A DNA stretch of 64,000 nt from Haliotis cracherodii. Lineage: Eukaryota. The first letter of the stretch is position 1. Every line of letters starts with the position of its first letter. The stretch covers positions 43,152,001 to 43,216,000 of the forward strand of contig NW_027266297.1 of assembly GCF_022045235.1 (NCBI RefSeq), read 5' to 3'. A model generated the notes under the pieces. That model had not been told where the DNA came from. It made no database searches and worked only from the letters and a program-made list of their open reading frames with translations. A program made the translations under genes and the position numbers. Below are positions 6,701 through 58,000 of this stretch, piece after piece.

Positions 6701-9700
6701 TGAATGGTATTAGGAGGTACTGACACAAGGAGGAGTGGTATTAGCAGGTACTGACACAAGGAGGAGTGGTATAAGGAGGTACTGACACAAGGAGGAGTGG
6801 TATAAGGAGGTACTGACACAAGGAGGAGTGGTATTAGCAGGTACTGACACAAGGAGGAGTGGTATAAGGAGGTACTGACACAAGGAGGAGTGGTATTAGC
6901 AGGTACTGACACAAGGAGGAGTGGTATAAGGAGGTACTGACACAAGGAGGAGTGGTATAAGTAGGTAAAGACACAAGGAATGAATGGTATTAGGAGGTAC
7001 TGACACAAGGAGACACTGATGCAAGGAAGGAGTGGTAAAAGGAGGTACTGACACAAGGAATGAATGGTATTAGGAGGTACTGACACAAGGAGGAGTGGTA
7101 TAAGTAGGTAAAGACACAAGGAATGAATGGTATTAGGAGGTACTGACACAAGGAGACACTGATGCAAGGAAGGAGTGGTAAAAGGAGGTACTGACACAAG
7201 GAATGAATGGTATTAGGAGGTACTGACACAAGGAGGAGTGGTATTAGCAGGTACTGACACAAGGAGGAGTGGTATAAGGAGGTACTGACACAAGGAGGAG
7301 TGGTATAAGGAGGTACTGACACAAGGAGGAGTGGTATAAGGAGGTACTGACACAAGGAGGAGTGGTATAAGGAGGTACAGACACAAGGAATGAATGGTAT
7401 TAGGAGGCACTGACACAAGGAGGAGTGGTATAAGGAGGTACTGACACAAGGAGGAGTGGTATAAGGAGGTACAGACACAAGGAATGAATGGTATTAGGAG
7501 GTACTGACACAAGGAGGAGTGGTATTAGGAGGTACTGACACAAGGAGGAGTGGTATAAGTAGGTACAGACACGAGGAATGAATGGTATTAGGAGGTGCTG
7601 ACACAAGGAGACACTTTCACAAGAGGTACTAGTACAAGGAGGTAACGACACAAGGACCTACTTCCACAAGAGGTACCAGTACAAGGAGGTAACGACACAA
7701 GGACCTACTTCCACAAGAGGTACCAGTACAAGGAGGTAACGACACAAGGACCTACTTCCACAAGAGGTACCAGTACAAGGAGGTAACGACATACGGATGT
7801 CCTGTCAAAACGAGGTAATGGTAAAAGGAGTAACTGGTACTAAGGCGCTGGTACTAGTACACAGAAACTGATATTGGTACAGAGATACTGATACAGAGAT
7901 ACTGATGGTACACTGGTACATAAGTGTTGTGACAAAAAGAGAAAGCAAAATGACTCAGAAGATATCGTATTTTCTTGAGTCTAGTGTGCACTCTTTTCCA
8001 AAAATACAAAGCTGTGTAGAAGGAGGTGTGCATTATACACACAATAATGAGTTTTGATTGTCTTTTTTCCCCTAACACAAAGACATTTCCGTGAGCATGT
8101 AACACCGGAAATGCCATATCAACAAATCCATATTGGAGTACGCAAATGTAATCTTATAATTATGCAGTCTGGTTATTAAAAGTGTTCATTGTATATCTGG
8201 ACTTTGGACTGTTTGTAATCTATTTCATTAATTTTATCTATTTAGATTAATTTTGGTGAAATTGCGTGTGAAGCGGCCGGAAGATTGCATGACTCACTAT
8301 TATTTACAGCAACCACAGTCAGATTACCGTTATTGACGCCTTGAAACAAACTTTAGTTGATAGAGAATGGATACATATATCATGAATGCCACACTTTGAC
8401 TCGTAAAAAGTCATATTTGTTGTAGTTTGACTATTCTGTGTCAACATAAAGTTCTTGCGATCACGTGCGCGGGAGCCTCAACGGTGGCTGGTCAAATTGT
8501 TCCATGTCAAAAAAATATCCGGCCATAGTGATCAGCTGCACCGAAGTGCTATGCTTATGGTTATTAATGTTTTAAATATATATAGTAAAAGCTGCATCGA
8601 AAATAACACGATATTGGAAGATATTCTTCCTGACAAATTCCGATCATTGCATCAAAATTCTTTAAAGTTATATCATTGGGTAAGTTTTAACCATATCACC
8701 GGTAGATTCCAAGAAAAATGTTTGGACAGCTGATTGCTGTTTCCGGCTTGGGTAACGAGAAAATACACAAGGTAATCTTAATCTCTGCATGTGAATTAAT
8801 GCCTAGCAGGACAGAAAATATTATTTAAACTGTAAATCAACATGTCTGGTGATTTTTTATCTCAATTTTCAAATTCGTTTCTTATCACAGGTTCATTTAC
8901 CTGAATTCGCTGAAGGGGTACGGTGTAATTTTCTGCTGTGTATAATATTCAACAACAAATTTTCCAAAATACTGAATCCCCTAGAGGGGATGCGCATTAT
9001 ACTTTGGGGCACACTATACTCAAGAAAATATGGTATGTGTTCAGCGGAAATTCAACAAACATCACTGAAATAACAAAGAATACAATTTCACCTTTCTTTT
9101 CTTTTGGCTCTCTCTTCTTTTTCTCTCCAGGTGTTTTCTTAGACTTTGTTGACTTTTCTTTCTTCCCCTTTGTCTTTTCTTTCTTCCCCTTTGAAACTTC
9201 CTTGATCTTCTTCTCTATCTTCCTCTTCTTTTCTGGAGGTTCAATCTGCACAACTTCTTCAACTACAAGGGGAACATCACACACATGGTACTACAGACAA
9301 TAAGAAATGTTGCTTTTTCCTGGAAGACTAAGGGATTTTTAAAGTCAGTGTATTAAGGAGAGAACTCAAAATTCACTATGCACAGAATCATATACGACTG
9401 GTCGATTTGGGAAAATATTGATGTCAAAGTGAACATTACATTAATGTTGTTGACTATTATTCTAATAAATGTTAAGAAATCACAAAATATCTGGGCAGAC
9501 CTAGATGAAACAAATACAAAAAAACAACAGCATTAGTACCAACAATCTTCATGAGCATGATGAAAATGGTTAAAATGCAAGTGCTTAATAAAAAAATATC
9601 ATGACTCATGAAACACTGTCAATAAAATTTAGTTTGAATGACTTGAATCAAATTTGGCCAAGCCTCATATCTTTTTAACAACAAAGCAGTTATCTCCCCT

Positions 9701-19557: not shown

Positions 19558-20868
19558 TCAAAGACCACTGGCACCTGGTCCTTTGCCTTCGGGAGGTGGT
19601 GGGCATCCGGTTGGTGGTGGAGGGCGATCACCTTCCTGTGGTGCTTGTCTGTGTGGACGGGATTCACCTTCTGGAGGGGGAGGACATCCGGTTGGTGGTG
19701 GAGGACGATCACCTTCCTGTGGTGCTTGTCTTCGTGGACGGGATTCACCTTCTGGAGGGGGAGGACATCCGGTTGGAGGTGGAGGGCGATCACCTTCCTG
19801 TGGTGCTTGTCTTCGTGGACGGAATTCACCTTCTGGAGGGGGAGGACATCCGGTTGGTGGTGGAGGGGGGTCACCTTCCTGTGGTGCTTGTCTGCGTGGA
19901 CGGGATTCGCCTTCTGGAGGGGGAGGACATCCGGTTGGTGGTGGAGGACGGTCACCTTCCTGTGGTGCTTGTCTGCGTGGACGGGATTCACCTTCTGGAG
20001 GGGGAGGACATCCGGTTGGAGGTGGAGGGCGATCACCTTCCTGTGGTGCTTGTCTTCGTGGACGGGATTCACCTTCTGGAGGGGGGGGACATCCGGTTGG
20101 AGGTGGAGGGCGATCACCTTCCTGTGGTGCTTGTCTTCGTGGACGGAATTCGCTTTCTGGAGGGGGAGGACATCCGGTTGGTGGTGGAGGGGGGTCACCT
20201 TCCTGTGGTGCTTGTCTGCGTGGTCGGGATTCACCTTCTGGAGGGGGAGGACATCCGGTTGGTGGTTGAGGGCGATCACCTTCCTGTGGTGCTTGTCTTC
20301 GTGGACGGAATTCGCCTTCTGGAGGGGGAGGACATCCGGTTGGTGGTGGAGGGGGGTCACCTTCCTGTGGTGCTTGTCTGCGTGGACGGGATTCACCTTC
20401 TGGAGGGGTGGGAGGACATCCGGTTGGTGGTGGAGGACGGTCACCTTCCTGTGGTGCTCGTCTGCGTGGTCGGAATTCACCTTCTGGAGGGGGAGGACAT
20501 CCGGTTGGTGGTGGAGGGGGGTCACCTTCCTGTGGTGCTTGTCTGCGTGGTCGGGATTCACCTTCTGGAGGTGGAGGACATCCGGTTGGTGGTGGAGGGC
20601 GATCACCTTCCTGTGGTGCTTGTCTGCGTGGTCGGGATTCACCTTCTGGAGGGGGAGGACATCCGGTTGGTGGTGGAGGGGGGTCACCTTCCTGTGGTGC
20701 TTGTCTGCGTGGACGGGATTCACCTTCTGGAGGGGGGGGACATCCGGTTGGTGGTGGAGGGCGATCACCTTCCTGTGGTGCTTGTCTCCGAAAGCGAGAT
20801 TCTAGAAGAGGATAAGACCAACATGAAGCGACACAAGAGAGCGCCAGTAGCAGCAAGAAAGTCTTCAT
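19558..20868 (-). CDS. Gene A: secreted Pro-rich, single-Cys repeat polyprotein (436 aa; signal peptide, short propeptide, 15 x 27-aa units)
   Basis: ATG at 20868 in a CACC-ATG context, TATAAA at 20906-20911, signal peptide MKTFLLLLALSCVASCWS, propeptide YPLLESRFRR, units QAPQEGD(R/P)PPPPTGCPPPPEGE(S/F)RPRR, uninterrupted frame. A 3'-UTR intron (19196-19522) precedes a terminal exon with AATAAA (~19165-19170). Confidence 0.9.
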   Translation of the reverse strand: MKTFLLLLALSCVASCWSYPLLESRFRRQAPQEGDRPPPPTGCPPPPEGESRPRRQAPQEGDPPPPPTGCPPPPEGESRPRRQAPQEGDRPPPPTGCPPPPEGESRPRRQAPQEGDPPPPPTGCPPPPEGEFRPRRRAPQEGDRPPPPTGCPPTPPEGESRPRRQAPQEGDPPPPPTGCPPPPEGEFRPRRQAPQEGDRPQPPTGCPPPPEGESRPRRQAPQEGDPPPPPTGCPPPPESEFRPRRQAPQEGDRPPPPTGCPPPPEGESRPRRQAPQEGDRPPPPTGCPPPPEGESRPRRQAPQEGDRPPPPTGCPPPPEGESRPRRQAPQEGDPPPPPTGCPPPPEGEFRPRRQAPQEGDRPPPPTGCPPPPEGESRPRRQAPQEGDRPPPPTGCPPPPEGESRPHRQAPQEGDRPPPPTGCPPPPEGKGPGASGL

Positions 20869-25804: not shown

Positions 25805-26308
25805 ATGAAGACGTTCCTGGTACTGCTGGCGCTCTCCTTTGTGGCCACATGTTGGTCTCAAGCACAACAGGACGGAGACCGCCCACTACCACCAACCGGA
25901 TGTCCTCCACCTCCAGAAGGTGAATCCCGACCACGCAGACAAGCACGACAAGAAGGTGACCACCCACCTCCACCAACCGGATGCCCTCCCCCACCTGAAG
26001 GTCAATCTGGCCCAAAGGAACAAGCACAGGAAGGCGACCGCCCTCCTCCACCAACCGGATGTCCTCCCCCTCCAGAAGGTAGAGAACAATCCCGACCACG
26101 CAGACAAGCACAACAGGAAGGTGACCGCCCACCACCAACGACTGGAAGTTCTCTCCTACCTGAAGGTCAATCTGGCCCACAAGGACAAGCACCACAGGAA
26201 GGTGACCGCCCACCTCCACCAACTGGATGCCCTCCACCTTCAGAAGGTAAAAGGCAAGGTGCTAGAGGTCCTGGAGGAAGAAGGCCACCTCCTCCACGCA
26301 GGAACTAA
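25805..26308 (+). CDS. Gene B: secreted Pro-rich Cys repeat protein, paralog of A (167 aa, 5 units plus a basic tail)
   Basis: Signal peptide MKTFLVLLALSFVATCWS, TATA 43 nt upstream, units ending alternately in SRPRR and SGPKE/SGPQG, tail KRQGARGPGGRRPPPPRRN. 3'-UTR intron 26321-26904, AATAAA at 26928-26933. Confidence 0.9.
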   Translation: MKTFLVLLALSFVATCWSQAQQDGDRPLPPTGCPPPPEGESRPRRQARQEGDHPPPPTGCPPPPEGQSGPKEQAQEGDRPPPPTGCPPPPEGREQSRPRRQAQQEGDRPPPTTGSSLLPEGQSGPQGQAPQEGDRPPPPTGCPPPSEGKRQGARGPGGRRPPPPRRN

Positions 26309-30125: not shown

Positions 30126-30656
30126 ATGAAGACATTGCTGATACTACTTGCGCTCTCCTTTGTTGCCACATGTTGGTCTCAAGCACCACAGGAAGGTGAC
30201 CGACCGCCTCCACCAACCGGATGCCCTCCCCCTTCAGAAGGTGAATCCCGACAGCGCAGACAAGCAGGACAAGAAGGTGACGGCCTACCTCCACCAACCA
30301 CATACCCTGCCCATCCTGAAGGTCGATCTGGCCCACAGGAACAAGAACCACAGGAAGGTGACCGTGCTCCTCCACCAACCGGATGCCCTCCCCCTCCTGA
30401 AGGTGAATCTGGCCCACAGGAACAAGAACCACAGGAAGGTGACCGTGCTCCTCCACCAACCGGATGCTCCCCCCCTCCTGAAGGTCGATCTGGCCCACAG
30501 GAACAAGAACCACAGGAAGGTGACCGTGCTCCTCCACCAACCGGATGCCCTCCCCCTCCTGAAGGTGAATCTGGCCCACGGGAACAAGCAACACAGGACG
30601 GTGACCGTCCTCCTCCACCAACCGGAGGTCTAATGAGTATGAAACACCGATTATAG
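30126..30656 (+). CDS. Gene C: paralog of A/B (176 aa as read), 3'-truncated by a foreign segment; may be a pseudogene
   Basis: MKTLLILLALSFVATCWS plus 5.5 units. Homology stops abruptly at 30626 (...PPPPTG) and the last codons (GLMSMKHRL) come from unrelated DNA. TATA at 30083-30088; the E-box reads CCTCTG. Confidence 0.7.
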   Translation: MKTLLILLALSFVATCWSQAPQEGDRPPPPTGCPPPSEGESRQRRQAGQEGDGLPPPTTYPAHPEGRSGPQEQEPQEGDRAPPPTGCPPPPEGESGPQEQEPQEGDRAPPPTGCSPPPEGRSGPQEQEPQEGDRAPPPTGCPPPPEGESGPREQATQDGDRPPPPTGGLMSMKHRL

Positions 30657-31341
30657 ACCCAAAGCTGAGTGATTTGCAATTTTAACACTTAAACAAGGCA
30701 TTTGAAGGCGTTGTGCAATATAGGGGAATGCCCTCGCTAAAAATAGGTCAGTGACGCTACACTCTGTACATACAACATGAAGTAGAAATATCTCTACAGT
30801 TCTGTACTTTTCAATGATATGAGAAAGGGAACAATTGTTTTAAGGTTACACCCTAACTGTATCAAATAAAAGGACTATTTATCGAGGTTGGAGGGGTTTT
30901 AGATTTACATTAATAATACAGCTTTAGTCAAGCAGGACATTTTGTACTATGTCACTTTACTATCAGGTCGGCTAGCGAGACATGGACAGGTCCCAGCAAT
31001 GTAAGCAAGCCTATCGCTGTCAACACAATGTCTATAATAACTAGGTCACCTTATTATGCTGGACTGCATACCAACGCAAGGTCTCAGCTGAACATGTTGA
31101 TACATGTTTATTCACCTGTATAGACTTGTTGGATGGGTTTAATAGTAGAGGGGACTTTTATTAGTAGCGGCGTTAGGTATGATTTAGATCGCATACTGTT
31201 CAGTAACCTGTAACCCCTTTCTTTACCTTCATAGGCAAGGTAGCGTTTTTCAAAGGGAGCGTGTATTGAACAGGGAAGTGAACTCTTCTTATTGAATGTA
31301 ATAAAGATAGACAGCTTTTCAGTATGCTATCAGTCAAGGAG

Positions 31342-31514: not shown

Positions 31515-32196
31515 CTATCAGTCAAGGAGCGATGGTTAAGCAGAACGGACGTGTTTGAGTATAATTGTTGTTAACAATAAATGTACACATCGCTAAAAGC
31601 ATTGGAACACAGTGTCTCCTATCAGTCAGCGCGCGACCCTCGGAGAGAGTGGACGTGTTTGAAAGTCGTCTGTGAATCTTTTCAAGTACAGATTATCTCA
31701 CGACCTAAGGTAATAGTTGAAAGTTGAATAAAACTTAAGAAATAAAATATTCCTTTCACTAACTCAATGTTATTGTATATAAATATAGTGCCTAATGACT
31801 TTAAACATCAAGAAAACAATTTTAAAGAAACAATGATAAATTTTCCCTACATATCATGAGGATATTATTAAGAGAATATGAAAAGTTTTAATTTCATTAC
31901 TTGTAGGATAGAAGAGAAACAGAAACATGAAATCCCTCTCAGACTTGGAGACATGGGCTATGAGTCACAACTGTACGAGTGATCCAGATGTAAATCTAAA
32001 AAGAATTGAGTTACTAGCTAACCATGTCGGTATCATAAAAAACGTATGCAAGGTCGTAGTTAACTTTTTTTTACAAGAAGGGGGCGGGGGGGGGGGGGGG
32101 GGGGGCAAATATTTGTACAAGTATCACTTGTCCCCAACTTGTATTTTCATGATTCAAATAAAACTGTTTTCTATAATTACCCCCGACTGGCTACGG

Positions 32197-34940
32197 CACT
32201 GGTATGCTTGCAATCAATGTAACAGAGTGTTTACACAGAATCACAATCTTCTCCGACATATAAGAACAACCAGAGGTATGAGTGTAATCAATGTGGCAAG
32301 TCTTATGCACGCATGGATAAATACAAAAGCCACAGTTGTCAACCGAGCCTGAAGAGACCCAGCCAGCCAACTAATACACGCAACGTTTGTGGTCATGTTC
32401 GGTGTTTCTTGTGAGCCATGTTCCACAAAGGGACGAGAATGAAGACAATGCCATCGTCCACTGCCCGAGAGATTCTATTCTCGACGTGTGGATCAGTGTG
32501 ATAGCTGCCTAGCCGACGGGAGAGATATAAGGAGAGGCGACTTAACCAGGTTCGTGGGTCGGCGCTGGAAGGGTCACTGAGGACTACAACACTGACTCCC
32601 AGTGAAACAGACAGCCTTGACATTCTTAAGTTTGTGGCGAATGAACAATTCAACATAGAGACTTTATAACATGAATTTCTCAAAGCAAAAACTAGGTATG
32701 AAATGGTTTCTGACCTTAAAAATCTAATACATCAAATATAATGAAAACAATGAAAGCATTTTGTCAGAACCCACCCTCCGAACAACACGTTTCTGGACCC
32801 ACAATTCAAATGAAATAGAATCACTTTTAGCTGAAGTTTTTCAGAAATTATATAAAGACTCCCAAGAGTTTCAGGCCGCGGGGAGTGGATGGATATTAAA
32901 TCGTATTATCCATATAGAAGTTAATACAGCTGAATATACCCCCTGTCAGGGAGTAGTTACTTTCCCCTTCCTAAATATCTCGCGAATAAAAAGGCCATTT
33001 TGAACATACAAAACCAGGATAAAAAATGCTTTATTTGGTCCACTTTGGCTGCTTTACATCCAACAGATCATGCCAACAGAGTGAGCCATTATCAGCAGTA
33101 TGAAAATGAACTTTATCTCAATGGCATTGAAATGCCAGTACCTCTATCACAAATTCACAAAGTCGAAAAGCAAAACCAAATTTCTATCAACGTATTTGGT
33201 TATAAAAAAGAAGAAGGGGTGTTCCCATTGCATATCAGTAAACTCCATTTTAAATCAGAGGTAGATTTATTATTGCTTAGTGAGGGGGACAAAAGGCATT
33301 TCAGTTTGATAAGGAATTTTAGTCGTCTCATGGGGGATAGGACAAAATACGGTCATACAACATTTTAATGCAGACGTTGTCTTCTGGGGTTATGAGGCAG
33401 GATTTGTAGGAAAACCATATACCCCATTGCTTTGATCATAGCATTCAAAAAGTTTAAATGTCAGAAAGTGATGATGACATATCGGTCAAATCCAAGCATA
33501 TCCATAGACTCCTTTATGTCCCATTCGTTATTGAATCGGTTGCAAAGAAGGTCATGGGTTGCAAGGGTAATCCAAGTCAATCCCTTACTTCAATATATCA
33601 GAAACATGAACCATCAGGGTTTTCATACAAGATCGTGAGTTCAGATTCTGGCTACAGTAAACCTGCTGTGACGTACAGTACAGTACACACTGTATCCAGC
33701 AGTTCATTCAGCGTCTTGCGAAGGAATAAATGGATCTTGATAAAATACTAGAAAATGTAGTTCCAATGAACTCAACAAATGAACAAGAACAACCATTTCA
33801 AATGGCTACGGTTTGCCATATTTGTAAAGAGGACCTTGGTCTTGACCTGTTCGAGATAATGATCTCATCACTGGTCAATATCGAGGAGCATCAAATCAAT
33901 TGTGCAAATTACAATTTCAGTTTAGAAAGGCCAAAGGTCAAAACGTAAGTTTTAACGTTTCTATATTCTTGTCAAAATTTGAAAGGTTATGATTCCCACA
34001 ACACATATCATGGCAGGGTTGATTGTATAGCAAACAGTTTGGAAAAATACATATCTTCCTCACTAGGTTGTCTGAGATTTATTGATTCTCTCCAGTTTCT
34101 GAGCGCTCCCTTGGACAAATTAGTGAATAACATGACCAATGATTGCAAGAGCAAGTCTGGAATTCTGAACATGGAGAATCTAAATTCAAACAGTTAAAAC
34201 AGGAAACTTCTGATAATGTGCAAATTTGATCGACTTATGAGAAAATGGAATTATCCTTATGACTTCATGGATGATGAATTAAAATTTGATTTAACTGAAC
34301 CTCCAAAGAATTTTTCTTCAGTTTATTGACAGACAGTCATATATCCCACGCTGACTAGATCCTAACACCTTTATCAAGCAATAGATAATCCATGGTATTG
34401 CTTGATAAAGGTGTTAGGATCTACACCGAAACGTCGCACTAATTGTAATAAAGAAGTTGTTCATCCATAGAACTCGTCTTACTTCATCACTCCAACTTCT
34501 AAATGCCACTGAAAGAAGTTCCATAAAACCAACCCTCAGAGTCTAACAAAAAAGTGTTCGGCAAGTTTAAAGATGAAGCTGAAGTTTACCCCAAGATTTC
34601 ATTCTGTGGTCTTTGGCCTAAACTGTATTCTTATGCTGTTGAAGCTCTTAAGAAAGATCAGGAAACTGATGATCCAAATTGTGTTATTAAAGAGGAGCAA
34701 AAAGCCAAAGGAACTTCAAAAACTGTAATTAAAAGAAAACTGAGACATAAAATGTACAAACAATGCCTCATAAAGCATACTCAGTTCAGACACCAGATGA
34801 CACAAGTTCAGAGTCGTACCCATCAGCTTTATACCGTTCAAATCAATAAAATCAGTCTATCCCCTTTTGATGATAAAATGCCTGTCCTGGAAGACGGGGT
34901 AGACACATTAGCTCACGGACATTATACAATCAAGTCTTAA
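32197..34940 (+). pseudogene. Polinton/Maverick-type protein-primed DNA polymerase B with N-terminal C2H2 fingers; frameshifted and internally deleted
   Basis: YACNQCNRVFTQNHNLLRH; GSGWIL; GSSYFPLP..LANKKAILNIQNQDKKCFIWSTLAAL; ISINVFGY; CHICKEDL; NLKGYDSH; LRFIDSLQFLSAPLDKLV; YPYDFMD; GKFKDE; KLYSY; KAKG; KISLSPFDDK..LEDGVDTLAHGHY. Confidence 0.85.
34356..34520 (+). mobile_element. Probable Penelope-like element pLTR fragment with an inverted 5' duplication, located at the PolB deletion
   Basis: Perfect 28-bp inverted repeat (34356-34383 / 34396-34423). The right arm continues as CTTGATAAAG-GTGT-taggatct-ACAC-CGAAACG, resembling a PLE hammerhead-like core, followed by AATAAA. Confidence 0.45.
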
Positions 34941-36231: not shown

Positions 36232-36455
36232 GTCTCGTCTTCTGACTCCACAGTTCTCTCAGTTGTGTACTCTAACCTATAGGTTCAGTCTCTGGTATTA
36301 ACGGTTGACTCGTGTTAGACGACCTCTCAAATACAGACTTGTTCTCATTCGAGCTCAATGTTGCTATAGGCCTAATTGGGTCTGACACGAATAATATATA
36401 AGACTGTAACCTGTTTGATTCCAGCGTAATAGGACGTAAGTCAATAGTTAGATTT

Positions 36456-38103
36456 CATCCGGTTGGTGGTGGAGGGCCGTCACCTTCCTGTGGTACTTGT
36501 CTGCGTGGGCAAGATTCACCTTCTGAAGGGGGAGGACATCCGGTTGGTGGTGGAGGGCGATCACCTTCCTGTGGTACTTGTCTGCGGGGGCAGGATTCAC
36601 CTTCAGGAGGGGGTAGACATCCGGTTGGTGGCGGTCACCTTCGTGTTGTGCTTGTCTGCGGTTTTCACCTTCGGGAGCTGGAGGATATCCGGTTGGTGGT
36701 AAAAGGTGGTCACCTTCCTGTGGTACTTGTCTGTGTGGGCAGGATTCACCTTCGGGAGGTGGAGGACATCCGGTTGGTGGTGGAGGGCCGTCACATAACT
36801 GTTGTGTTTGTCTTCGTGGACGGAATTCACCTTCTGGAGGGAGAGGACATCCGGTTGGGGGTGGAGGGACGTCACCTTCCTGTGGTGTTTGTCCTCGTGG
36901 ACGGGATTCGCCTTCTGGAGGGGGAGGACATCCGGTTGGTGTTGGAGGGCGGTCACCTTCCTGTTGTATTTGTCCACGTGGGCGGGATTCACCTTCGGGA
37001 GGGGGTGGACATCCGGTTGGTCCCGGTCATCTTCGTGTTGTGCTTGTCTGCGTGAGCGGGATTCACTTTCTGGAGGGGGAGGACATCCGGTTGGTGTTGG
37101 AGGGCAGTCACCTTCCTGTTGTACTTCTCTGTGTGGGCAGGATTCACCTTCTTGAGGAGGACATCCGGTTGAGGTCGGAGGGCCGTCACCTTCCTGTGGT
37201 GCTAAGTACATACAAACCAACAGCATAGCGACATGTGAATAGCATAACTTTTGAGCTTGGAACTCTGGCTTACTCGCTTATTCTGCTAACTACGTAATGT
37301 CTCGCATGAATTAGTGATATTGCACGAGTTCGCTGTTAGCGGTATTAGTTTGTTGTTGTAGGCCGACATATTCCAGCTATATGGCGGTGGTCTGTACATA
37401 TTCGAGTCTGGATCAGGCAATCCAGTGATTGATATTACTAGCAAAGTCCCCCGCCATCAGAGCACGGTGACATATAATCAAACAAGTCACCGAACATGAC
37501 CATCCGATCCAATTTAATCGACTCTTACGAGTAGCAATACAATTCTTAGCACATGTCACGGAGTTTGATGTGGGAGGAAAGCTGGAAATGGTGCAGATCT
37601 TAGACGTTTATTATTTTCGTGATTCCTCGAAAACACCGATAGTCCTGACATCTATAATCATTATTCATTCACCTTCGGGAGGTGGAGGACATCCGGTTGG
37701 TGGTGGAGGGCCGTCACATATTGTTATGTTTGTCCTCGTGGACGGGATTCACCTTCTGGAGGGGGGGGGGGGGGGGGGGTGAGGGCACATCCGGTTGTGG
37801 GTGGAGGGACCTCACTTGCCTGTGGTGCTTGTCCTTTTACTGTCACCTTCCTGTTGTATTTGTCTGCGTGGGCAGGATTCACCTTCTGAGGGGGATACAT
37901 CGGGTTGGGGGTGGAGGGCCGTCACCTTCCTGTGGTGCTTCGCCGTGGACGGGATTCACCTTCACGAGGGGGAGGACATCCGGTTGAAGGGGGAGGGCCG
38001 TCACCTGACTGTGGTTCTTGTCTGCGTGGGCGTACTTCTAGAAGAGGATAAGACCAACATGTGGCAGCACAAGAGAGCGCCAGAGCGCCAGGAAAGTCTT
38101 CAT
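36456..38103 (-). pseudogene. Gene D: pseudogene of the gene-A subtype
   Basis: ATG AAG ACT TTC CTG at 38103 with a 1-nt frameshift in the signal peptide, propeptide WSYPLLEVRPRR as in A, degenerate frameshifted units, an interruption at ~37205-37665 and truncation at 36456. TATA at 38141-38146. Confidence 0.85.
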
Positions 38104-39811
38104 GATGAGAATGAGGCTGCTGTCTCGGCACATCATATCTTTTATACACTTCCAGTCCAAACCAGATGGCTCATCGTTAACGCACATTATTTGCTACGGA
38201 GCATGCCTGTTTCGTTGCATTGCCATTGAAATAGATTTCGTGATTAATAATGTGACTCACTTTAAATTGAAAATACAGAGTGTTGATTTATGTCTTATTT
38301 GGTCCTTTTAGAGAACAAATAGCGAAAGAGGCCATGTGTTCTGCGAATTACTGCATTCAACCTTTTAATTGAAAAGATAATATTGCCTTTCAAAGTACAA
38401 ACACTAATTAAAACGCCATATGTGCCTCTTTGAAAGGGGACCAAATTGTACGCAGTATCCATTTCAAAGTAATTGCTCAAGGTAGCTGGCGTTAGGTGTT
38501 GTACAGCCTTTGGACATAGTTTCATCACAGGAGTAGAATTCTTCTGTACAAATTGTCAGACTTCCCCAATGATGCAGTGACAGCTAGAACTTGTCATACT
38601 ATTGGAAATAAGCTGGTTTAGCAGAGGTACCGCTGTACACGACCAACCCACACAACAACACAAGACCTGAGTGAATCAACAGTCAGTTTATAAGACAGTC
38701 ACAGAATCTTATATATAATCAGTCAAATAGAAATGTTTACAATCAATATTTAGAGCATGTTTTTTGACAATCCGTTATAGAAGTACATATATGTTAAGAA
38801 CACCAGGTGAACATGATATAGAATCATTACACAAGATACATGCTACATTAGTAGTACATATTCCAAGGTACACAACGTACCACAGTTTACATGTGATTGA
38901 ATCTGGTGTACCCGATATACTCTAAGTAATGTATTACCCGAGTGGGCTTTCAATCACGATACATACAGTTCAGCTACAATACATATTCCAAAAGGTAAAC
39001 AGCGTAATACAGTTAACAGAATAGGCATAATCCTTACACAAAAGTAGTACAATGGGAATATCTAAGATATACACACACGTTACAGTTACCAATTACACTT
39101 GCAGGTAGTGCCAAGGGTAATAGCATACACTTAAGATTTAACATAGTACAACATTGCAACGTTTCTTACCTGTGTGAATAAAGAGTTAGTTTATTAGACA
39201 GCAACAGAACGATTTGTGACTGTCTGTCGTCCGTATTCATACCTATTCTAGATACTACAGATAATCTCTTTTACTGATTAAACTGACGTTGTTATTGGGA
39301 ATTTTAGTGGCGATATCTAGACAGAATTATATAATTAAGTTCGACCGAGGCATTAATGGTAAAGGTGTTTATGATTGAAGTTTAGTCAGAATAACTGTTT
39401 ACCTGTTGCTAGTATGCCACGAATGTACACGTGGTACGGGTGATTTGATAAGGGTGGATGATAAACAACTGTAGACACAGATAAAGATATTAATGTCTTA
39501 CATTTGTTTGCCTAACTCTGTCTGACCCATGAGAGATGCTGGTCCTGTCCGACATGGGTTATCGGGTTGACCCTTGGCAGTCTAAAGATGATGGAACGTG
39601 ATCGTTTGTTGTAATATTACCTTATTTCACAATTTCCAACTCTTAATGTGTGGCATTTAGAGTGATAAAATATTTGTCAAACTTTGTCCATTTCCCCAAG
39701 TTAATAATACAATGGCGAACGCGTGCATGAGATTAACAGAATGTACATCGCCTCTGAAAAAACATTGGGCCTCATATAATTTATTGATTTAAGAAGAATT
39801 TATAAACTGAT

Positions 39812-41905
39812 CCTAGGCTGTGCAGTAATTTCTTACAACGACAATGTGCAGACACACTGCTGATATTAGCCATTGTCATAGGCTGTGCAGTAATTTCTTA
39901 CAACGACAATGTGCCGACACACTGCTGATATAAAAGCGACTGTCCTAGGCTGTGCAGTAATTTCTTACAACGACAATGTGTCGACACACTGCTGATATAA
40001 GCCATTGTCATAGGCTGTGCATAATTTCTTACAACGACAATGTGCCGACACAATGATGATATAGGCCACTGTCCTAGGCTGTGCAGTAATTTCTTACAAC
40101 AACGATGTGCAGACACACTGATGATATAAGCCATTGTCATAGGCTGTGCAGTAATTCTTACAACGACAATGTGCAGAAACACTGCTGATATAAGCCATTG
40201 TCATAGGCTGTGCAGTATTTTCTTACAACGACAATGTGCCGACACACTGCTGATATAAGCCACTGTCATAGGCTGTGCAGTAATTTCTTACAACGACAAT
40301 GTGCCGACACACTGCTGATATAAGCCATTGTCACAGGCTGTGCAGTATTTTCTTACAACGACAATGTGCAGACACACTGCTGATATAAGCCACTGTCATA
40401 GGTTGTGCAGTAATTTCTTACAACGACAATGTGTCGACACACTGCTGATATAAGCCACTATAACAGGCTGTGCAGTAATTTCTTACAATGACAATGTGCC
40501 GACACACTGCTGATATAAGCCATTGTCATAGGCTGTGCAGTAATTCTTACAACGACAATGTGCAGAAACACTGCTGATATAAGCCACTGTCATAGGCTGT
40601 GCAGTATTTTCTTACAACGACAATGTGCCGACACATTGCTGATATAAGCCACTGTCATAGGTTGTGCAGTAATTTCTTACAACGACAATGTGCCGACACA
40701 CTGCTGATATAAGCCATTGTCACAGGCTGTGCAGTATTTTCTTACAACGACAATGTGCAGACACACTGCTGATATAAGCCACTGTCATAGGTTGTGCAGT
40801 AATTTCTTACAACGACAATGTGTCGACACACTGCTGATATAAGCCACTATAACAGGCTGTGCAGTAATTTCTTACAATGACAATGTGCAGACACACTGCT
40901 GATATAAGCCACTGTCATAGGCTGTGCAGTATTTTCTTACAATGACAATGTGCAGACACACTGTTGATATAAGCCATTGTCATAGACTGTGCAGTAATTT
41001 CTTACAACGACAATGTGCCGACACACTGCTGATATAAGCCACTGTCCTAGGCTGTGCAGTAATTTCTTACAATGACAATGTGTCGACACACTGCTGATAT
41101 AAGCCATTGTCATAGGCTGTGCAGTATTTTCTTACAACGACAATGTGCCGACACACTGCTGATATAAGCCATTGTCATAGGTTTGCAGTATTTTCTTACA
41201 ACGACAATGTGCCGACACACTGCTGATATAAGCCATTGTCATAGGCTGTGCAGTAATTTCTTACAACGACAATGTGCAGACACATTGCTGATATAAGCCA
41301 CTGTCCTAGGCTGTGCAGTAATTTCTTACAACGACAATGTGCCGACACACTGCTGATATAAGCCACTGTCAAAGGATGTGCAGTATTTTCTTACAACGAC
41401 AATGTGTCGACACACTGCTGATATAAGCGACTGTCATAGAATGTGCAGTATTTTCTTACAACGACAATGTGCAGACACAATGATGATATAAGCCATTGTC
41501 ATAGGCTTTGCAGTAATTTCTTACAACGACAATGTGCCGACACACTGCTGATATAAGCCATTGTCACAGGCTGTGCAGTATTTTCTTACAACGACAATGT
41601 GCAGACACACTGCTGATATAAGCTATTGTCATAGGCTGTGCAGTATTTTCTTACAACGACAATGTGTAGACACACTGCTGATATAAGCCATTGTCACAGG
41701 CTGTGCAGTATTTTCTTACAACGACAATGTGCCGACACACTGCTGATATAAGCCACTGTCATAGGCTGTGCAGTATTTTCTTACAACGACAATGTGCCGA
41801 CACATTGCTGATATAAGCCACCGTCATAGGCTGTGCAGTAATTTCTTACAACAACAATGTGCCCACACACTGCTGATATAAGCCACTGTCAAAGGATGTG
41901 CAGCA
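39812..41905. repeat. 65-bp tandem repeat GGCTGTGCAGTA(A/T)TTTCTTACAACGACAATGTGC(C/A)GACACACTGCTGATATAAGCCA(T/C)TGTCATA, about 32 copies
   Basis: Direct tandem repetition with period 65 (e.g. 40271 and 40336). Confidence 0.95.
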
Positions 41906-42440
41906 ACACACACAATTGAATCCAGCAGGAATCCTGTATCCCGTGCTTGTCGTCAGAGCCGAGTATAGAGGAACAGGTGGCCAGGTTCGGTAACTGATTG
42001 TGTGTCATTGAGACTGATAGCGTGAATTGTTGCTCATTTTATCAGTCATTGGTTTGTCTGGTCCAGGCTTGATTATGTACAGACCGCCGTGGTATAGCCT
42101 GGAACATCGCGGAGTTAAACAACAGTCACTCGCTGATTATTAAGTAACAGCAGCTCCATCAGATGTAATTTGGAATATATTCTCGTCAATTTCTTATCTC
42201 CTTAAGGCGTGTAATAAGCTATGTACACGTCAATTGTGCTGTTCAAATTACATTATCTCTTTCGTTCATTGAGCCTTAAATTGAAGCGTCACGTTTTAAT
42301 CATCGAAACTGTTTCAATGACAATGCAAAGAGTCACGCAACACCGATTGGTAATTACTGCGAGGTAATGATGTGCCATCTGGCTTGGACTTGAAGTGTAT
42401 AAAAGCTGTGCTGTGCCGAGACATGAGTATCACTTTCACC

Positions 42441-44537
42441 ATGAAGACGTTCCTGGTACTGCTGGCGCTCGCCTTTGTTGCCACATGTTGGTCGCAAACA
42501 CCTCAGAGTGAAGGCAAGCGCCCACTATCAACAACGAAACCGTCACCCCCTATAGAAGGTCAATCTGGTCCCGAAAGTCAAAGAGGCGAAGGACCACAAA
42601 GTCAAAGCGGTGAAGGACCCCAAAGAGGTGAAGGATCCCAAAGAGGCGAAGGACCCCAAAGAGGTGAAGGATCCCAAAGAGGTGAAGGATCCCAAAGAGA
42701 CGATGGACCCCAAAGTCAAAGAGGTGAAGGACCCCAAATAGGTGAAGGATCCCAAAGAGGCGAAGGACCCGAAAGTCAAAGAGGTGAAGGACCCCAAAGA
42801 GGTGAAGGATCCCAAAGAGGCGAAGGACCCCAAAGAGGTGAAGGACCCCAAAGAGGCGAAGGACCCCAAAGAGGTGAAGGACCCCAAAGGGGTGAAGGAT
42901 CCCAAAGAGGCGAAGGACCCCAAAGAGGTGAAGGATCCCAAAGAGGCGAAGGACCCCAAAGAGGTGAAGGACCCCAAAGGGGTGAAGGATCCCAAAGAGG
43001 CGAAGGACCCCAAAGTCAAAGAGGTGAAGGACCCCAAAGAAGTGAAGGATCCCAAAGAGGCGAAGGACCCCAAAGTCAAAGAGGTGAAGGACCCCAAAGA
43101 AGTGAAGGATCCCAAAGAGACGATGGACCCCAAAGTCAAATAGGTGAAGGATCCCAAAGAGGCGAAGGACCCCAAAGAGGTGAAGAACCCCAAAGAGGTG
43201 AAGGATCCCAAAGAGACGATGGACCCCAAAGTCAAAGAGGTGAAGGACCCCAAATAGGTGAAGGATCCCAAAGAGGCGAAGGACCCGAAAGTCAAAGAGG
43301 TGAAGGACCCCAAAGAGGTGAAGGATCCCAAAGAGGCGAAGGACCCCAAAGAGGTGAAGGACCCCAAAGGGGTGAAGGATCCCAAAGAGGCGAAGGACCC
43401 CAAAGTCAAAGAGGTGAAGGACCCCAAAGAAGTGAAGGATCCCAAAGAGGCGAAGGACCCCAAAGTCAAAGAGGTGAAGGACCCCAAAGTCAAAGAGGCG
43501 AAGGACCCCAAAGTCAAAGAGGCGAAGGACCCCAAAGTCAAAGAGGTGAGGGACCCCAAAGTCAAAGAGGCGAAGGACCCCAAAGAAGTGAAGGATCCCA
43601 AAGAGGCGAAGGACCCCAAAGTCAAAGAGGTGAAGGACCCCAAAGTCAAAGAGGGGAAGGACCCCAAAGTCAAAGAGGCGAAGGACCTAAAAGTCAAAGA
43701 GGCGAAGGCCCCCAAAGTCAAAGAGGTGAGGGACCCCAAAGTCAAAGAGGTGAGGGACCCCAAAGTCAAAGAGGTGAAGGACCCCAAAGTCAAAGAGGTG
43801 AGGGACCCCAAAGTCAAAGAGGCGAAGGACCCCAAAGTCAAAGAGGGGAAGGACCCCAAAGTCAAAGAGGTGAGGGACCCCAAAGTCAAAGAGGTGAGGG
43901 ACCCCAAAGTCAAAGAGGTGAGGGACCCCAAAGTCAAAGAGGTGAGGGACTTCAAAGTCAAAGAGGCGAAGGACCCCAAAGTCAAAGAGGGGAAGGACCC
44001 CAAAGTCAAAGAGGTGAGGGACCCCAAAGTCAAAGAGGTGAAGGACCCCAAAGTCAAAGAGGTGAAGGACCCCAAAGTCAAAGAGGTGAGGGACTTCAAA
44101 GTCAAAGAGGCGAAGGACCCCAAAGTCAAAGAGGGGAAGGACCCCAAAGTCAAAGAGGTGAGGGACCCCAAAGTCAAAGAGGTGAAGGACCCCAAAGTCA
44201 AAGAGGTGAAGGACCCCAAAGTCAAAGAGGCGAAGGACCCCAAAGTCAAAGAGGGGAAGGACCCCAAAGTCAAAGAGGTGAGGGACTTCAAAGTCAAAGA
44301 GGCGAAGGACCCCAAAGTCAAAGAGGTGAGGGACCCCAAAGTCAAAGAGGTGAGGGACCCCAAAGTCAAAGAGGTGAGGGACCCCAAAGTCAAAGAGGTG
44401 AGGGACTTCAAAGTCAAAGAGGCGAAGGACCCCAAAGTCAAAGAGGGGAAGGACCCCAAAGTCAAAGAGGTGAGGGACCCCAAAGTCAAAGAGGTGAGGG
44501 ACCCCAAAGTCAAAGAGGTGAAGGACCCGAACTTTGA
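42441..44537 (+). CDS. Gene E: secreted Gly/Gln/Glu/Arg/Pro/Ser repeat protein (698 aa) with the family's promoter and signal peptide but a different repeat
   Basis: MKTFLVLLALAFVATCWS, one degenerate ancestral unit (QTPQSEGKRPLSTTKPSPPIEGQSGPE), then ~650 aa of QRGEG(P/S) hexamers and QSQRGEG(P/L) octamers in an unbroken frame. TATA at 42398-42403, AATAAA at 44605-44610 and 44614-44619. Confidence 0.9.
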   Translation: MKTFLVLLALAFVATCWSQTPQSEGKRPLSTTKPSPPIEGQSGPESQRGEGPQSQSGEGPQRGEGSQRGEGPQRGEGSQRGEGSQRDDGPQSQRGEGPQIGEGSQRGEGPESQRGEGPQRGEGSQRGEGPQRGEGPQRGEGPQRGEGPQRGEGSQRGEGPQRGEGSQRGEGPQRGEGPQRGEGSQRGEGPQSQRGEGPQRSEGSQRGEGPQSQRGEGPQRSEGSQRDDGPQSQIGEGSQRGEGPQRGEEPQRGEGSQRDDGPQSQRGEGPQIGEGSQRGEGPESQRGEGPQRGEGSQRGEGPQRGEGPQRGEGSQRGEGPQSQRGEGPQRSEGSQRGEGPQSQRGEGPQSQRGEGPQSQRGEGPQSQRGEGPQSQRGEGPQRSEGSQRGEGPQSQRGEGPQSQRGEGPQSQRGEGPKSQRGEGPQSQRGEGPQSQRGEGPQSQRGEGPQSQRGEGPQSQRGEGPQSQRGEGPQSQRGEGPQSQRGEGPQSQRGEGPQSQRGEGLQSQRGEGPQSQRGEGPQSQRGEGPQSQRGEGPQSQRGEGPQSQRGEGLQSQRGEGPQSQRGEGPQSQRGEGPQSQRGEGPQSQRGEGPQSQRGEGPQSQRGEGPQSQRGEGLQSQRGEGPQSQRGEGPQSQRGEGPQSQRGEGPQSQRGEGLQSQRGEGPQSQRGEGPQSQRGEGPQSQRGEGPQSQRGEGPEL

Positions 44538-44886
44538 ACACTCTTTAAAACGAATTACTGTCGTAACGAAGGTTATCACTTCAGGTGACACTTCTTGTTA
44601 ATGAAATAAAACTAATAAATACTGAACGATTTTGTTATGCATATGTCTTGCACGCGTGGGTTTGCAATAGAAATGCGTGACGCTGTATTACTAAGTGTAT
44701 GAGAAACGACACATCGCGGGTCCCCCCCCCCCCCCCCCCCCCAAGCCGCAATGCCACGATATGAGTGATTCATTGTTCAGAGCTGAGTTAATTCACTCAC
44801 TTAAGGGGCCAATTCTAGCGGTGGGAAGCGACTAAATGGACCGGCTGGCCAGACTCGGTGACTTGATTGATTGGTGTCATCGGACG

Positions 44887-45433
44887 CATCTTCCCGAGGC
44901 AAGAGAGTTGACTGACTTTAAAAGTCCTGTTTCCACCCTTGCCGAACTAGGCTGGAATTCCTGGGCTCGATCGTAGCGCCACCAGTGGCTATTACCAGTT
45001 ATGTCCATTCTATGCCTCTCCCATATGGACCAATCAGATTCCACCTCTCGTATCACATGCATTTGCTTCAAACAATATGGCGGTGCCCAGTCAAGACGAT
45101 CTGATCGACCATCAAGATCTTTTTTTTTGATAAACGGTTCTTACTTCGCGAAATACATCAAATCACGTGAGCATCTTGATTAAAAACATGAAAAGATTTG
45201 GAAAATATCTGTTGACAACGAGTTGGCGATGCACATGCTTTGCAAATCCTGCAATCGACCGAACTCTGTATGACAGTTTACGAACCAGATTTTTATTTCG
45301 GTTCGCGAATTTGATTGGACTATGCATAGAATCGTTAGTCCAGCCAAAATCTAACTCCATAATCCCAGCCTAGTTCGGCAAGGGTGGAAACTGGACTTTT
45401 ATAGTCAGTTAACACACTTGCCTCGGGAAGATG
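44887..45433. mobile_element. MITE with a 9-bp TSD (Mutator/MULE-like) nested in a SINE; related fragments at ~58255-58310 and ~60026-60090
   Basis: TIRs CATCTTCCCGAGGCAAG... and ...CTTGCCTCGGGAAGATG extend about 70 bp. TSD CATCGGACG at 44878-44886 and 45434-45442. Confidence 0.85.
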
Positions 45434-55000: not shown

Positions 55001-58000
55001 ACTGAAGAGCAGAGACCCTCTTTAAGAGATACATGTACTAACTTGTTAGTAGATGGAAGAAATCTTCCATGAATACTGTAGCCTCTACAAAAGTACCAAT
55101 TAAGTGTTGGCCTACAATCCAAGTCCATTATTATGCATAATCGAAATGAAAAGGCTGCAGTGCTCCTGATAATGTGCAGTACTGGTCATTATCAGAACTA
55201 ACAAGTACCATACATCTTTTTTCAAAATAATAAATATCTTACTACTCATTCAAAGACCATCATTCAAAGACCTCGTGCTGTACCTTAATATAACCAAGAC
55301 GAGAGAACTCGAGTGTGTTATTAGCCAATGGCAGTTCAGGATTGGGAGAAAATCAATTTGATGCTGACATGAAATAAGAGGAAGAGGATTTAAGAGGAAG
55401 GTAATGCCTGGTATGGTATGATAAAAAATTATCATGAAAGTGTATAGTGTTGTTTTGACACGGTTGTAATTTGTTTGAATGCATCATATACTAAGTGTGA
55501 CTTGCAGACTGACTTTACAAAGTTACCCAGTGCCTGTACCTACTTATTTCATCTCAAAACATTAATTGTTTGCAGTAATCAAGCTGATAATGGTGACAAT
55601 TGCAAAAGTTTAACCTTTTGTTAAGAGAGATTTACACTGAAACCTTTCAAATTTAATAAGAGTGTGAGCATGGTGAGTGAGTGAGCTTGCTTTGATGCTA
55701 CTTTGAATAGTATTTCATTCACATCACAGTGTGTCAGCTTAATGTGGGAGGAAAGCCTGAAATGAACCATGGGCATTGTGCTGACAAGCAGGAAATATAA
55801 TCAGGGTGCATCAGGATTCAAATCCAAGATCATAGTTTTCCGACTTGCCTAAGGGACGCAACCCTGTACAGCAAACTGCAGCACCTTAGTTTACTGGGAC
55901 ATCCGTTCGCCCATATAAATATATGTGTGTGTGTGTAGTAGGTTGAGATAAAAGCAACTTACCTGGGAAATAAAAGGGCTGATTTGGTTTTTGAGGCGGA
56001 GCAGTTTCCCAAGACCCTTCTCTATAACAGTTGGGAATGACAGGAGACGAAGCGTGTGGCCGGTCGGGGCAGTGTCAAACACTACCACTGAGAAATTCAT
56101 ATTCTTTACAAGCCTGTGTGGTAGAAACAGACACATAGTTGAAAAGCAAAGCCATGTCACCATTGAAGATATTTTACTTTTAAACTGTAATCCATTCCTT
56201 TTTTAAATTGTAAATGCACTTGCACAATTCAATCACAAGTGTAGTCCACATATATGATGTTGTGGCAAAATTGGCCTACAATATCATTTGACGGACTGCT
56301 GACACAAATACGGTTTGTTTACTTGTACTATGCAGTCAATGCTGGTTGTCAGGCTGCACACTCCAGCATGACAACACCTTCTGCCTTCAGCAGAAAACGG
56401 AACACATCCAACATCTGAGTAGCTCAGTCCTTCACACAATAAGCAAGGCCAATTTGTTTTTCTTGACTTTTCTACAACCTCTCTATATTTTAAGAACTGA
56501 AATAGACAAAATATTTCCTAGTTTTGCTTGAAAATGTGCTCATTTGAAACATCTCCTTCTTGGTATTCTTCCTATTAACGGTACATATATTTGGAGGCAG
56601 AACATTTTTTATATGGCTTACCTCCTGTAAAGACTGACAAAAGATAAACAAAGTGAAAAGAAACAATACTGGCCTTGCCTAGAATTAACATAGGGACTGA
56701 CCCATCAACAATATTCTAAAAGTCAAAGATGTCAGGTCCTTCATTCAAAACATTCACACACTTCAAAAAAAAAAACCAAAAGAATCCATAGATGTGTAGA
56801 TACCTTTTTTTCAATTGAAGGGTGTCTGACTGTCAATACTGCTTTGATATTTTATTATTTTATTCAATGATATTAGTACATATGGTACGTGGGAACCTAC
56901 ATTTTCCTCAGAAGATTTATAATTGGTGATGGTGTTCTTTGCAAAATGAATGAGAGGGACTTTCCCAACTTTGACTTGTATTGCAGCTTCACACTTAAGA
57001 TGGACATTGTACACATGTTGGAGAACGAACCCAGTTCTTTGATGTCAAAAGTGAACACTTTAACCCCCACCCACCCTTGCCTGTATCTACTGTTGTTCAA
57101 GACTAACCTCATCACTTCAGCAAAGCTCATAGCTTCATCAATACCAGGGAAAGCTCCAAGCAACTCTTGTACCATATTCTTCCCCATGTTCATCATGTCG
57201 GCTGAAACACAGATGTGGCATTCATCCTCCATTCTATCAGGATATAAAACCTGGACCCACAGCCTCCATAGCTTTATATTAGGAAGTGACAGCATTCCCA
57301 GCTGTATTAGGCACAATCAATAATGCAATAAAGATACCAGTAATGCAATAAGGATACCAGTAATTCAATATGAGTAACCAATAATGAAACAAGGATACCA
57401 ATAATGCAACAAGGATACCAGTAATGCATTAAGGATACCAGTAATGCAAAAGGAATACCAGTAATGCAACGAGGATACCAGTAATGCAATATGAGTACCA
57501 ATAATGCAACAAGGATACCAGTAATGCAATAAGGATGCCAGTCATGCAACAAGGTTACAGTAACGCAATAAGGATACCAGTAATGCAATATGTGTACCAG
57601 TAATGCAACGAGGATACCAGTAATGCAATAAGGATACCAGTAATTCAATAAGGAGAGAAAGAATAGTATCATCTGATGGTATTATTAACTTTGTGTCCTT
57701 CACAAAACGTTAACGGTTCCATCGAAACAAAGCAACACTGACACATGGGTTCCGGGTATTTATTATAATAGAATGCAGATATAATGCACTGGATAATCAA
57801 GGATGATTCCTATCATACAACATCACCAACCTGTACAAGACAGTTATCACTACAGCATTGTGTCTAAGCTGTTTCTTATTTGTTAAGCATGTCATCGTAT
57901 CCCAATTATGTAGATCGACGCTCATGATGTCAATCGCTGGATTGTCTGTTCAAGACTCGATTATTTACAGATTGCTGTCATATAGGTGGAATACTGTTGA

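Follow-up and report, generated by a model that had tools for sequence, protein, structure and literature searches.

The question raised by this locus is how a gene that opens like gene B, a member of a Cys/Pro-rich family, came to encode a long Cys-free repeat. The window, that is, the whole stretch of DNA that was analysed, measures 64 kb. Gene E occupies positions 42441–44537 (+ strand) as one open frame of 698 amino acids followed by a stop codon. It is preceded by a B/C-type family promoter and 5′ UTR (42275–42440, +), the BLAST homology to B starting at 42275 (86.6% identity over 261 nt), and a TATA box lies at 42398–42404. A pattern for the TATA-containing family promoter matched 15 of the 16 family loci in a genome search, with no control match. 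The list of open reading frames includes an upstream ATG in frame with gene E, at 42423. The first 18 residues (42441–42494, +) were called by eye as a hydrophobic leader and likely signal peptide, with 96% identity to that of B and 89–91% to those of the Gly/Pro genes presented below; the same by-eye reading found no further hydrophobic stretch in the protein. The near-identity to B claimed for the promoter and leader is high, but does not exceed 91% for the promoter core and 96% for the signal peptide.

The leader is followed by one eroded unit of Cys/Pro type (42495–42572, +), which contains no Cys and ends with a B/C-type EGQSGP linker. Its alignment scores of 75, 72 and 66 against A, B and C were reached by none of 200 codon shuffles of each, which identifies it as the ancestral unit expected at the start of the repeat. 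Its alignment with the Gly/Pro genes was not significant in the codon-shuffle test. A 5′ block (42573–43460, +) consisting mainly of 18-nt units (QRGEGP or QRGEGS) then gives way to a 3′ block (43461–44528, +) of 24-nt units (QSQRGEGP), both with higher-order duplications. A new repeat behind a B-type leader, as in the original prediction, is thus what the gene contains. Parsing from 42597 to 44528 yielded 90 units, with 36 of the 45 before 43461 measuring 18 nt and 43 of the 45 from 43461 onwards measuring 24 nt, in agreement with the proposed division into halves. The larger block said to occur twice was recovered, with its DDGP unit, as two exact copies of 181 nt at 42673 and 43189, and a second duplication of 188 nt is found in the 5′ block at 42912 and 43302. 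Four Leu variants, the number foreseen, are located at 43929, 44073, 44265 and 44385. The rule of one Arg and one Glu per unit is followed exactly in 80 units and broken in the other 10. The repeat is indeed free of Cys, aromatic residues and furin sites (no Cys, Phe, Trp or Tyr, and no RxxR).

Whether such a repeat could be a dispersed non-coding satellite was examined with a pattern for the unit. All 51 genome-wide matches sit inside gene E, with no match in the control, so this identity was ruled out. Whole-unit slippage alone preserves the reading frame of the repeat. Among the repeat variants, six types are synonymous and ten non-synonymous, covering 54 and 39 copies, respectively; purifying selection on the repeat was not significant in this test (p = 0.096).

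At its 3′ end, the gene departs from the family plan. In A, B and the Gly/Pro genes, the stop codon is followed by an intron of 182–584 nt and then a short non-coding exon. The final two codons and stop of gene E (44529–44537, +) come without the family C-terminal peptide and the 3′ UTR splice donor. Downstream, a remnant of about 30 nt from the 3′ end of the family intron (44554–44584, +) aligns with the intron end of the C13, C45a and C34b genes and retains the acceptor AG at 44583–44584. Next come a last exon that is non-coding and a flank, both of Gly/Pro-lineage type (44585–44707, +; 77% identity to C34b, E = 7e-21) with AATAAA at 44605 and 44614. The C-terminal peptide and donor have therefore been lost, and the acceptor and last exon are still present. 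The repeat itself contains 18 donor-like sites (AG/GTGAG), from which splicing to the kept acceptor at 44583–44584 is possible.

The family was delineated by using the promoter and leader of gene E as a DNA query against the 1.18-Gb genome. All 16 scored matches were family loci: A, B, C, D and E in the window, eight genes on another contig, C13, and C45a, C45b and C34b. The Cys/Pro unit is confined to the window, where all 18 genome matches to its pattern are located. Paralog A (19558–20868, −) encodes 436 amino acids arranged in 27-residue Cys/Pro units, each with one Cys and one RxxR site, 15 such sites in all, and has a 3′ UTR intron with an acceptor near 19196. Judged from its sequence, A could be a multi-copy precursor from which about 15 Pro-rich peptides starting with Gln are releasable. 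Paralog B (25805–26308, +; 167 amino acids; acceptor near 26904) is nearest to E in its head and to A in its tail. Paralog C (30126–30656, +; 176 amino acids) also consists of Cys/Pro units; no intron or last exon of family type was detected downstream (30656–31000), and its 3′ end looks truncated. Paralog D (36400–38265, −) is a Cys/Pro gene broken by frameshifts, stops and an interruption.

Other features of the window include a 65-bp minisatellite of 32 copies (39806–41903), which ends about 370 bp upstream of the promoter homology of gene E, and a G/A-skewed minisatellite of about 3.3 kb (4473–7834) with units of 31, 47 and 48 bp. An exon of an ArsA/GET3-type ATPase gene (57101–57193, −) gave one genome match and a PF02374 match just below the cut-off (E = 4e-5). 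An open reading frame at 31927–32352 (+) encodes one C2H2 zinc finger (PF00096, E = 2e-6). Fragments between 319 and 2826 are presumably from a DIRS-type retroelement; Pfam gave no confirmation.

The C13 array consists of eight tandem genes at C13:7476700–7523500, spaced 4.3–7.6 kb apart. All eight frames are open (556–868 amino acids) and encode a nearly Cys-free Gly/Pro/Glu/Gln/Arg repeat unlike that of E, with 43–47% Gly. The kilobases upstream of copies 2–8 are 97–99.9% identical, and the array reads as a recent dosage amplification. The coding strand of these genes is open over a long stretch a second time, in the +2 frame (550–860 amino acids, rich in Lys, Pro, Glu and Val), and antisense frames are also open; these extra frames probably follow from the codon bias of the repeat. 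C45a (on C45 near 24.298 Mb, −) is broken by stops, and its Gly/Pro units are mixed with RPRR-QAP remnants of the Cys/Pro unit; it therefore links the two repeat types as an intermediate. C45b ends after the leader and C34b is frameshifted, so that 4 of the 16 loci (D, C45a, C45b and C34b) are visibly broken. As the C13 genes and C45a carry other repeats, repeat replacement behind the family leader occurred more than once. The idea of a singular birth of a new protein in gene E received no support: eight genes with the same leader have another near-Cys-free repeat, the tail of E belongs to their lineage, charge balance is already found in A, and the repeat is present under four organism labels.

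Searches for relatives outside the genome were negative. Restricted to proteins of near length, the protein collection yielded no homolog of A among 7991 candidates and none for residues 1–60 of E among 23. Three low-complexity matches to E, from 7993 near-length candidates, were rejected, two carrying PF00849/PF01479 and one being named a PI4-kinase. B gave a single match against 1.84 billion representatives (E = 8e-4); this protein, whose best Pfam hit is a Pcf11 repeat below the cut-off, was rejected. None of the five family proteins submitted had a Pfam match, and an exact look-up of nine sequences returned no record. In the literature searched, the main texts contained none of four family motifs, and no description of the gene E family was found. 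The 16-locus family is absent from the protein collections and papers searched.

The repeat of gene E had been proposed to be seeded from the linker of B and C. Its likeness to that linker does not exceed the level of shuffles. The 30-mer at the junction matches A, B and C at 17–18 of 30 positions, the level of codon shuffles, and the junction 15-mer has no match of at least 11 of 15 in A, B or C. Ser is written TCT in the linker and AGT in the QSQ of the repeat. The best matches, mostly not significant, are on the Gly/Pro side. All ten Gly/Pro genes match the 30-mer at 22 of 30 positions, and three of the four tested (C45a, C34b and C13_8) match the 15-mer at 13–14 of 15. E spells 68 of its 70 Gly-Pro pairs with CCC; most pairs in the Gly/Pro genes are spelled likewise, versus none of 8 in A, B and C. 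The best peptide match of the repeat, 7 of 10 residues, is in C45a. Codon shuffles were exceeded by the 30-mer in one of 14 paralog comparisons (the frameshifted C34b, p = 0.01, uncorrected), and no amino-acid level match of the repeat to the paralogs went beyond them. Descent of the unit from a Gly/Pro-type octapeptide (GPxGQxREGP pattern) is likely yet unproven, because just this one comparison beats the shuffles.

Head and tail of gene E point to different relatives. In the head, E is 93% identical to B, 82–84% to the Gly/Pro genes and 79% to A. In the tail, it is 70–72% identical to the Gly/Pro genes and 49% to B, and A and B are 59% identical to each other, the distant tail alignments (45–59% identity) being near saturation. 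The tail of E scores 100–139 against the Gly/Pro genes, with shuffle maxima of at most 47 and with A, B, C and D at background, and the tails of A and B align with each other. In approximately unbiased (AU) tests with seven taxa, the grouping of E with B was rejected for the tail (p = 0.0007). It was preferred for the head, a short alignment of 186 columns, where the grouping of A with B had p = 0.047 and that of A with E was not rejected (p = 0.108). The alignments indicate that one of the two genes, E or B, is a recombinant. There is a modest lean towards E, because one exchange from promoter to first unit, from a neighbouring B-type gene, needs no unseen donor. Such a single exchange would account for the B/C-type leader end and linker of E; a recombinant B would give the same discordance, and the identities by themselves do not discriminate between the two genes.

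If B is the recombinant, the repeat of E may have been born in place. E, B and C would then share a single Cys/Pro ancestor whose tail was of Gly/Pro type; the linker region of E itself would have been the source of its repeat, and B would have acquired an A-like tail later. The first unit and linker of E are of B/C type with the repeat directly after them, the conflict between head and tail can be assigned to B, and the comparisons of the repeat with the Gly/Pro genes are mostly not significant. This history is nevertheless rather unlikely, given the shuffle-level match of linker and repeat, the lack of a matching 15-mer and the differences in Ser and Gly-Pro codons. It also needs an unseen donor, because the tail of B is so much less like that of A than its head is like that of E.

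The preferred account, held to be somewhat more probable than improbable, is that E is an intact recombinant with a single coding exon, a B-type head and a Gly/Pro-type tail. Recombination or gene conversion between a B-type and a Gly/Pro-type gene would have produced it, and the unit of six or eight codons would likely have grown by slippage after the exchange. The product, presumably uncleaved and hydrated, would be secreted as a disordered polymer with balanced charges that serves in a mucus or matrix gel. A bolder extension, considered quite unlikely, sees the same strong promoter, leader and 3′ exon as a REST-like cassette, whose cargo recombination switches: Cys/Pro peptides released by furin in A–C, Gly-rich polymers that stay uncleaved in E and the eight C13 genes. 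E would be a hybrid caught in the act, and could splice from any of its donor-like sites to give a ladder of polymer lengths ending with RGD and a single terminal Cys.

Presence of the gene elsewhere was evaluated on contigs of four of 14 matching sequencing runs, over the region 44481–44900. The runs come from four studies under four organism labels; for three of them RNA is a guess, and the records list none as RNA. The last two units of E were found on contigs of all four. Loose contig ends in runs X2 and X3 read as further variant units, and a contig of run X10 extends out of the repeat, past the stop and into the flank. Compared with the window, the flank contigs of X10 show 6 changes in about 160 letters and 10 in 181. 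A further X10 difference, at 44533, comes from one contig of depth below 5. X10 covers 44537–44816, which includes the predicted 3′ UTR, and the contigs of X1–X3 do not; within the region compared, none of the contigs of the four runs joined the repeat to 44585. The repeat is shared beyond one species label. Its presence in all four runs, together with the X10 contig, means that neither the repeat nor the shortened 3′ end is peculiar to this individual. Gene E is likely transcribed.

These observations bear on the view that E is a decaying paralog, whose body is now a minisatellite kept open just by units that are multiples of three. The four broken loci of the family, the C-terminal peptide and splice donor that E has lost, and the non-significant selection test would accord with decay. 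It is made barely credible by the intact promoter, TATA box, leader, stop and polyadenylation signals, by the retention of the repeat under four organism labels with assembly in the three putative RNA runs, and, weakly, by the absence of a stop among the 16 variant codon types.

The preferred account can be extended to the product. The mature chain of gene E has a mass of 71 kDa, with 26% Gly and 141 Gln. The charges of the repeat are balanced, with 86 Arg and 1 Lys against 91 Glu and 6 Asp. In our own implementation of the formulas, a mean hydropathy of 0.26 was calculated for the mature chain, below the fold boundary of 0.42, with a net charge of −0.015 per residue, a charged fraction of 0.28 and a kappa of 0.06. 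These values predict an expanded, hydrated, disordered coil, and the disordered polyampholyte originally envisaged is what such a model returns, with its charges well mixed. Gene A has a similar net charge (−0.010) and charged fraction (0.278), and the charge balance of E was therefore inherited; E differs from A in having lost its Cys, its Pro tracts and its furin sites. The most likely role on this model would be that of a bulk-secreted disordered gel or matrix protein. That the 141 Gln could be cross-linked to partners carrying Lys is a guess.

A calcifying matrix is one place where such a protein might be used, the mantle then secreting E as an RLCD protein of the shell matrix. According to PMC4897951, RLCD-type repeats are found in about 30% of the shell proteins known from Lottia, Haliotis and Pinctada, and slippage and domain swapping were already described there for molluscan RLCD proteins. 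The Gly content of the mature chain also lies within the range set for silk-like structural proteins (at least 25% Gly in an 80-residue window) in PMC4944945, whose definition further asks for a signal peptide and no transmembrane helix; to these correspond, as judged by eye, the hydrophobic leader and the lack of a later hydrophobic stretch in E. The gene E family is not among the RLCD or silk-like families described in the accessible parts of these two papers. E is not acidic overall, with 6 Asp. A search of the nacre and prism proteome of H. laevigata (PMC6003135) returned no family motif in 24 of its 27 supplementary files, the matches there belonging to other proteins; this is a weak negative in view of the other species, the short tryptic peptides and possibly incomplete files. 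The shell-matrix role is accordingly regarded as very doubtful. Among individual candidates, Has-vm2 was rejected as a relative since its repeat residues are different in the excerpt of PMC2034539 that was available. Has-CL10contig2 has GN and GGSGGSGFG repeats, unlike E. A collagen or collagen-like identity was dismissed, as the longest Gly-X-Y run is two triplets in E (up to seven in C13_1) and Pfam gave no collagen match.

An immune function of the family was also weighed, with A, B and C as sources of furin-released Pro-rich peptides and E as a disordered binder akin to SpTransformer (Sp185/333). The family shares with SpTransformer, as presented in the available sections of PMC5491942, clustered two-exon genes, mosaic repeat elements and disordered Gly-rich products. 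The Atlas leads for B are apidaecin precursors (0.81) and Sp185/333 (0.78), and A has its 15 RxxR sites. Atlas scores below 0.9 are at chance level, however, and all leads for the family fall below this value. The five proteins lack Pfam matches, the units released from A, B and C would be near neutral rather than cationic, and the genomic frame of E has neither His nor RGD, whereas a His-rich region and RGD define SpTransformer in those sections of PMC5491942. The intron of the gene E family follows the stop codon, another difference from SpTransformer as described there. Immune effectors are thus a highly improbable identity. An apidaecin-like furin-cleaved multi-copy precursor was rejected for E itself, which has no RxxR against the 15 of A, and no apidaecin Pfam match.

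With intact, hybrid and broken members side by side, one genome holds a record of the passage from a furin-cleaved Cys/Pro precursor to uncleaved Gly-rich polymers. Repeat replacement in molluscan secreted proteins becomes directly testable across abalone genomes. As a mode of evolution this is not new: REST genes and molluscan RLCD proteins already show it. The repeat of E is a simple natural polyampholyte with evenly mixed Arg and Glu, suited to materials tests.

Two other known systems offer close parallels. Primate involucrin has a single coding exon in which an ancestral 5′ segment was kept and a newer Gln/Glu-rich repeat grew in a polar manner and replaced the older one. Gene E resembles it in its single coding exon, its old 5′ segment and its newer Gln/Glu-rich repeat; involucrin is not secreted. 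The REST genes (semenogelins SEMG1/2, rodent Svs2–6 and Svp1) have a fixed promoter, signal peptide and non-translated last exon, with repeats built by slippage, as laid out in the accessible part of PMC7556508. Both they and the gene E family place a conserved promoter, signal peptide and 3′ non-translated exon around a divergent repeat-built coding part, and both REST genes and gene E have lost an ancestral Cys-containing part and possess Gln-rich repeats (PMC7556508, same part). REST genes are mammalian, from the WFDC locus with SEMG and PI3, whereas the gene E family belongs to an invertebrate-type genome of another phylum, and no homology to SEMG/PI3 was found in Pfam and protein-collection searches. 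The exon plan also differs, REST genes devoting a separate one of their three exons to the signal peptide (PMC7556508), and gene E carrying leader and repeat in one. For these two reasons, E was not accepted as a member of the REST family. Reproductive-gland expression and transglutaminase cross-linking are further marks of REST genes. As an analogy, the REST/semenogelin family is the closest working model for the gene E family.
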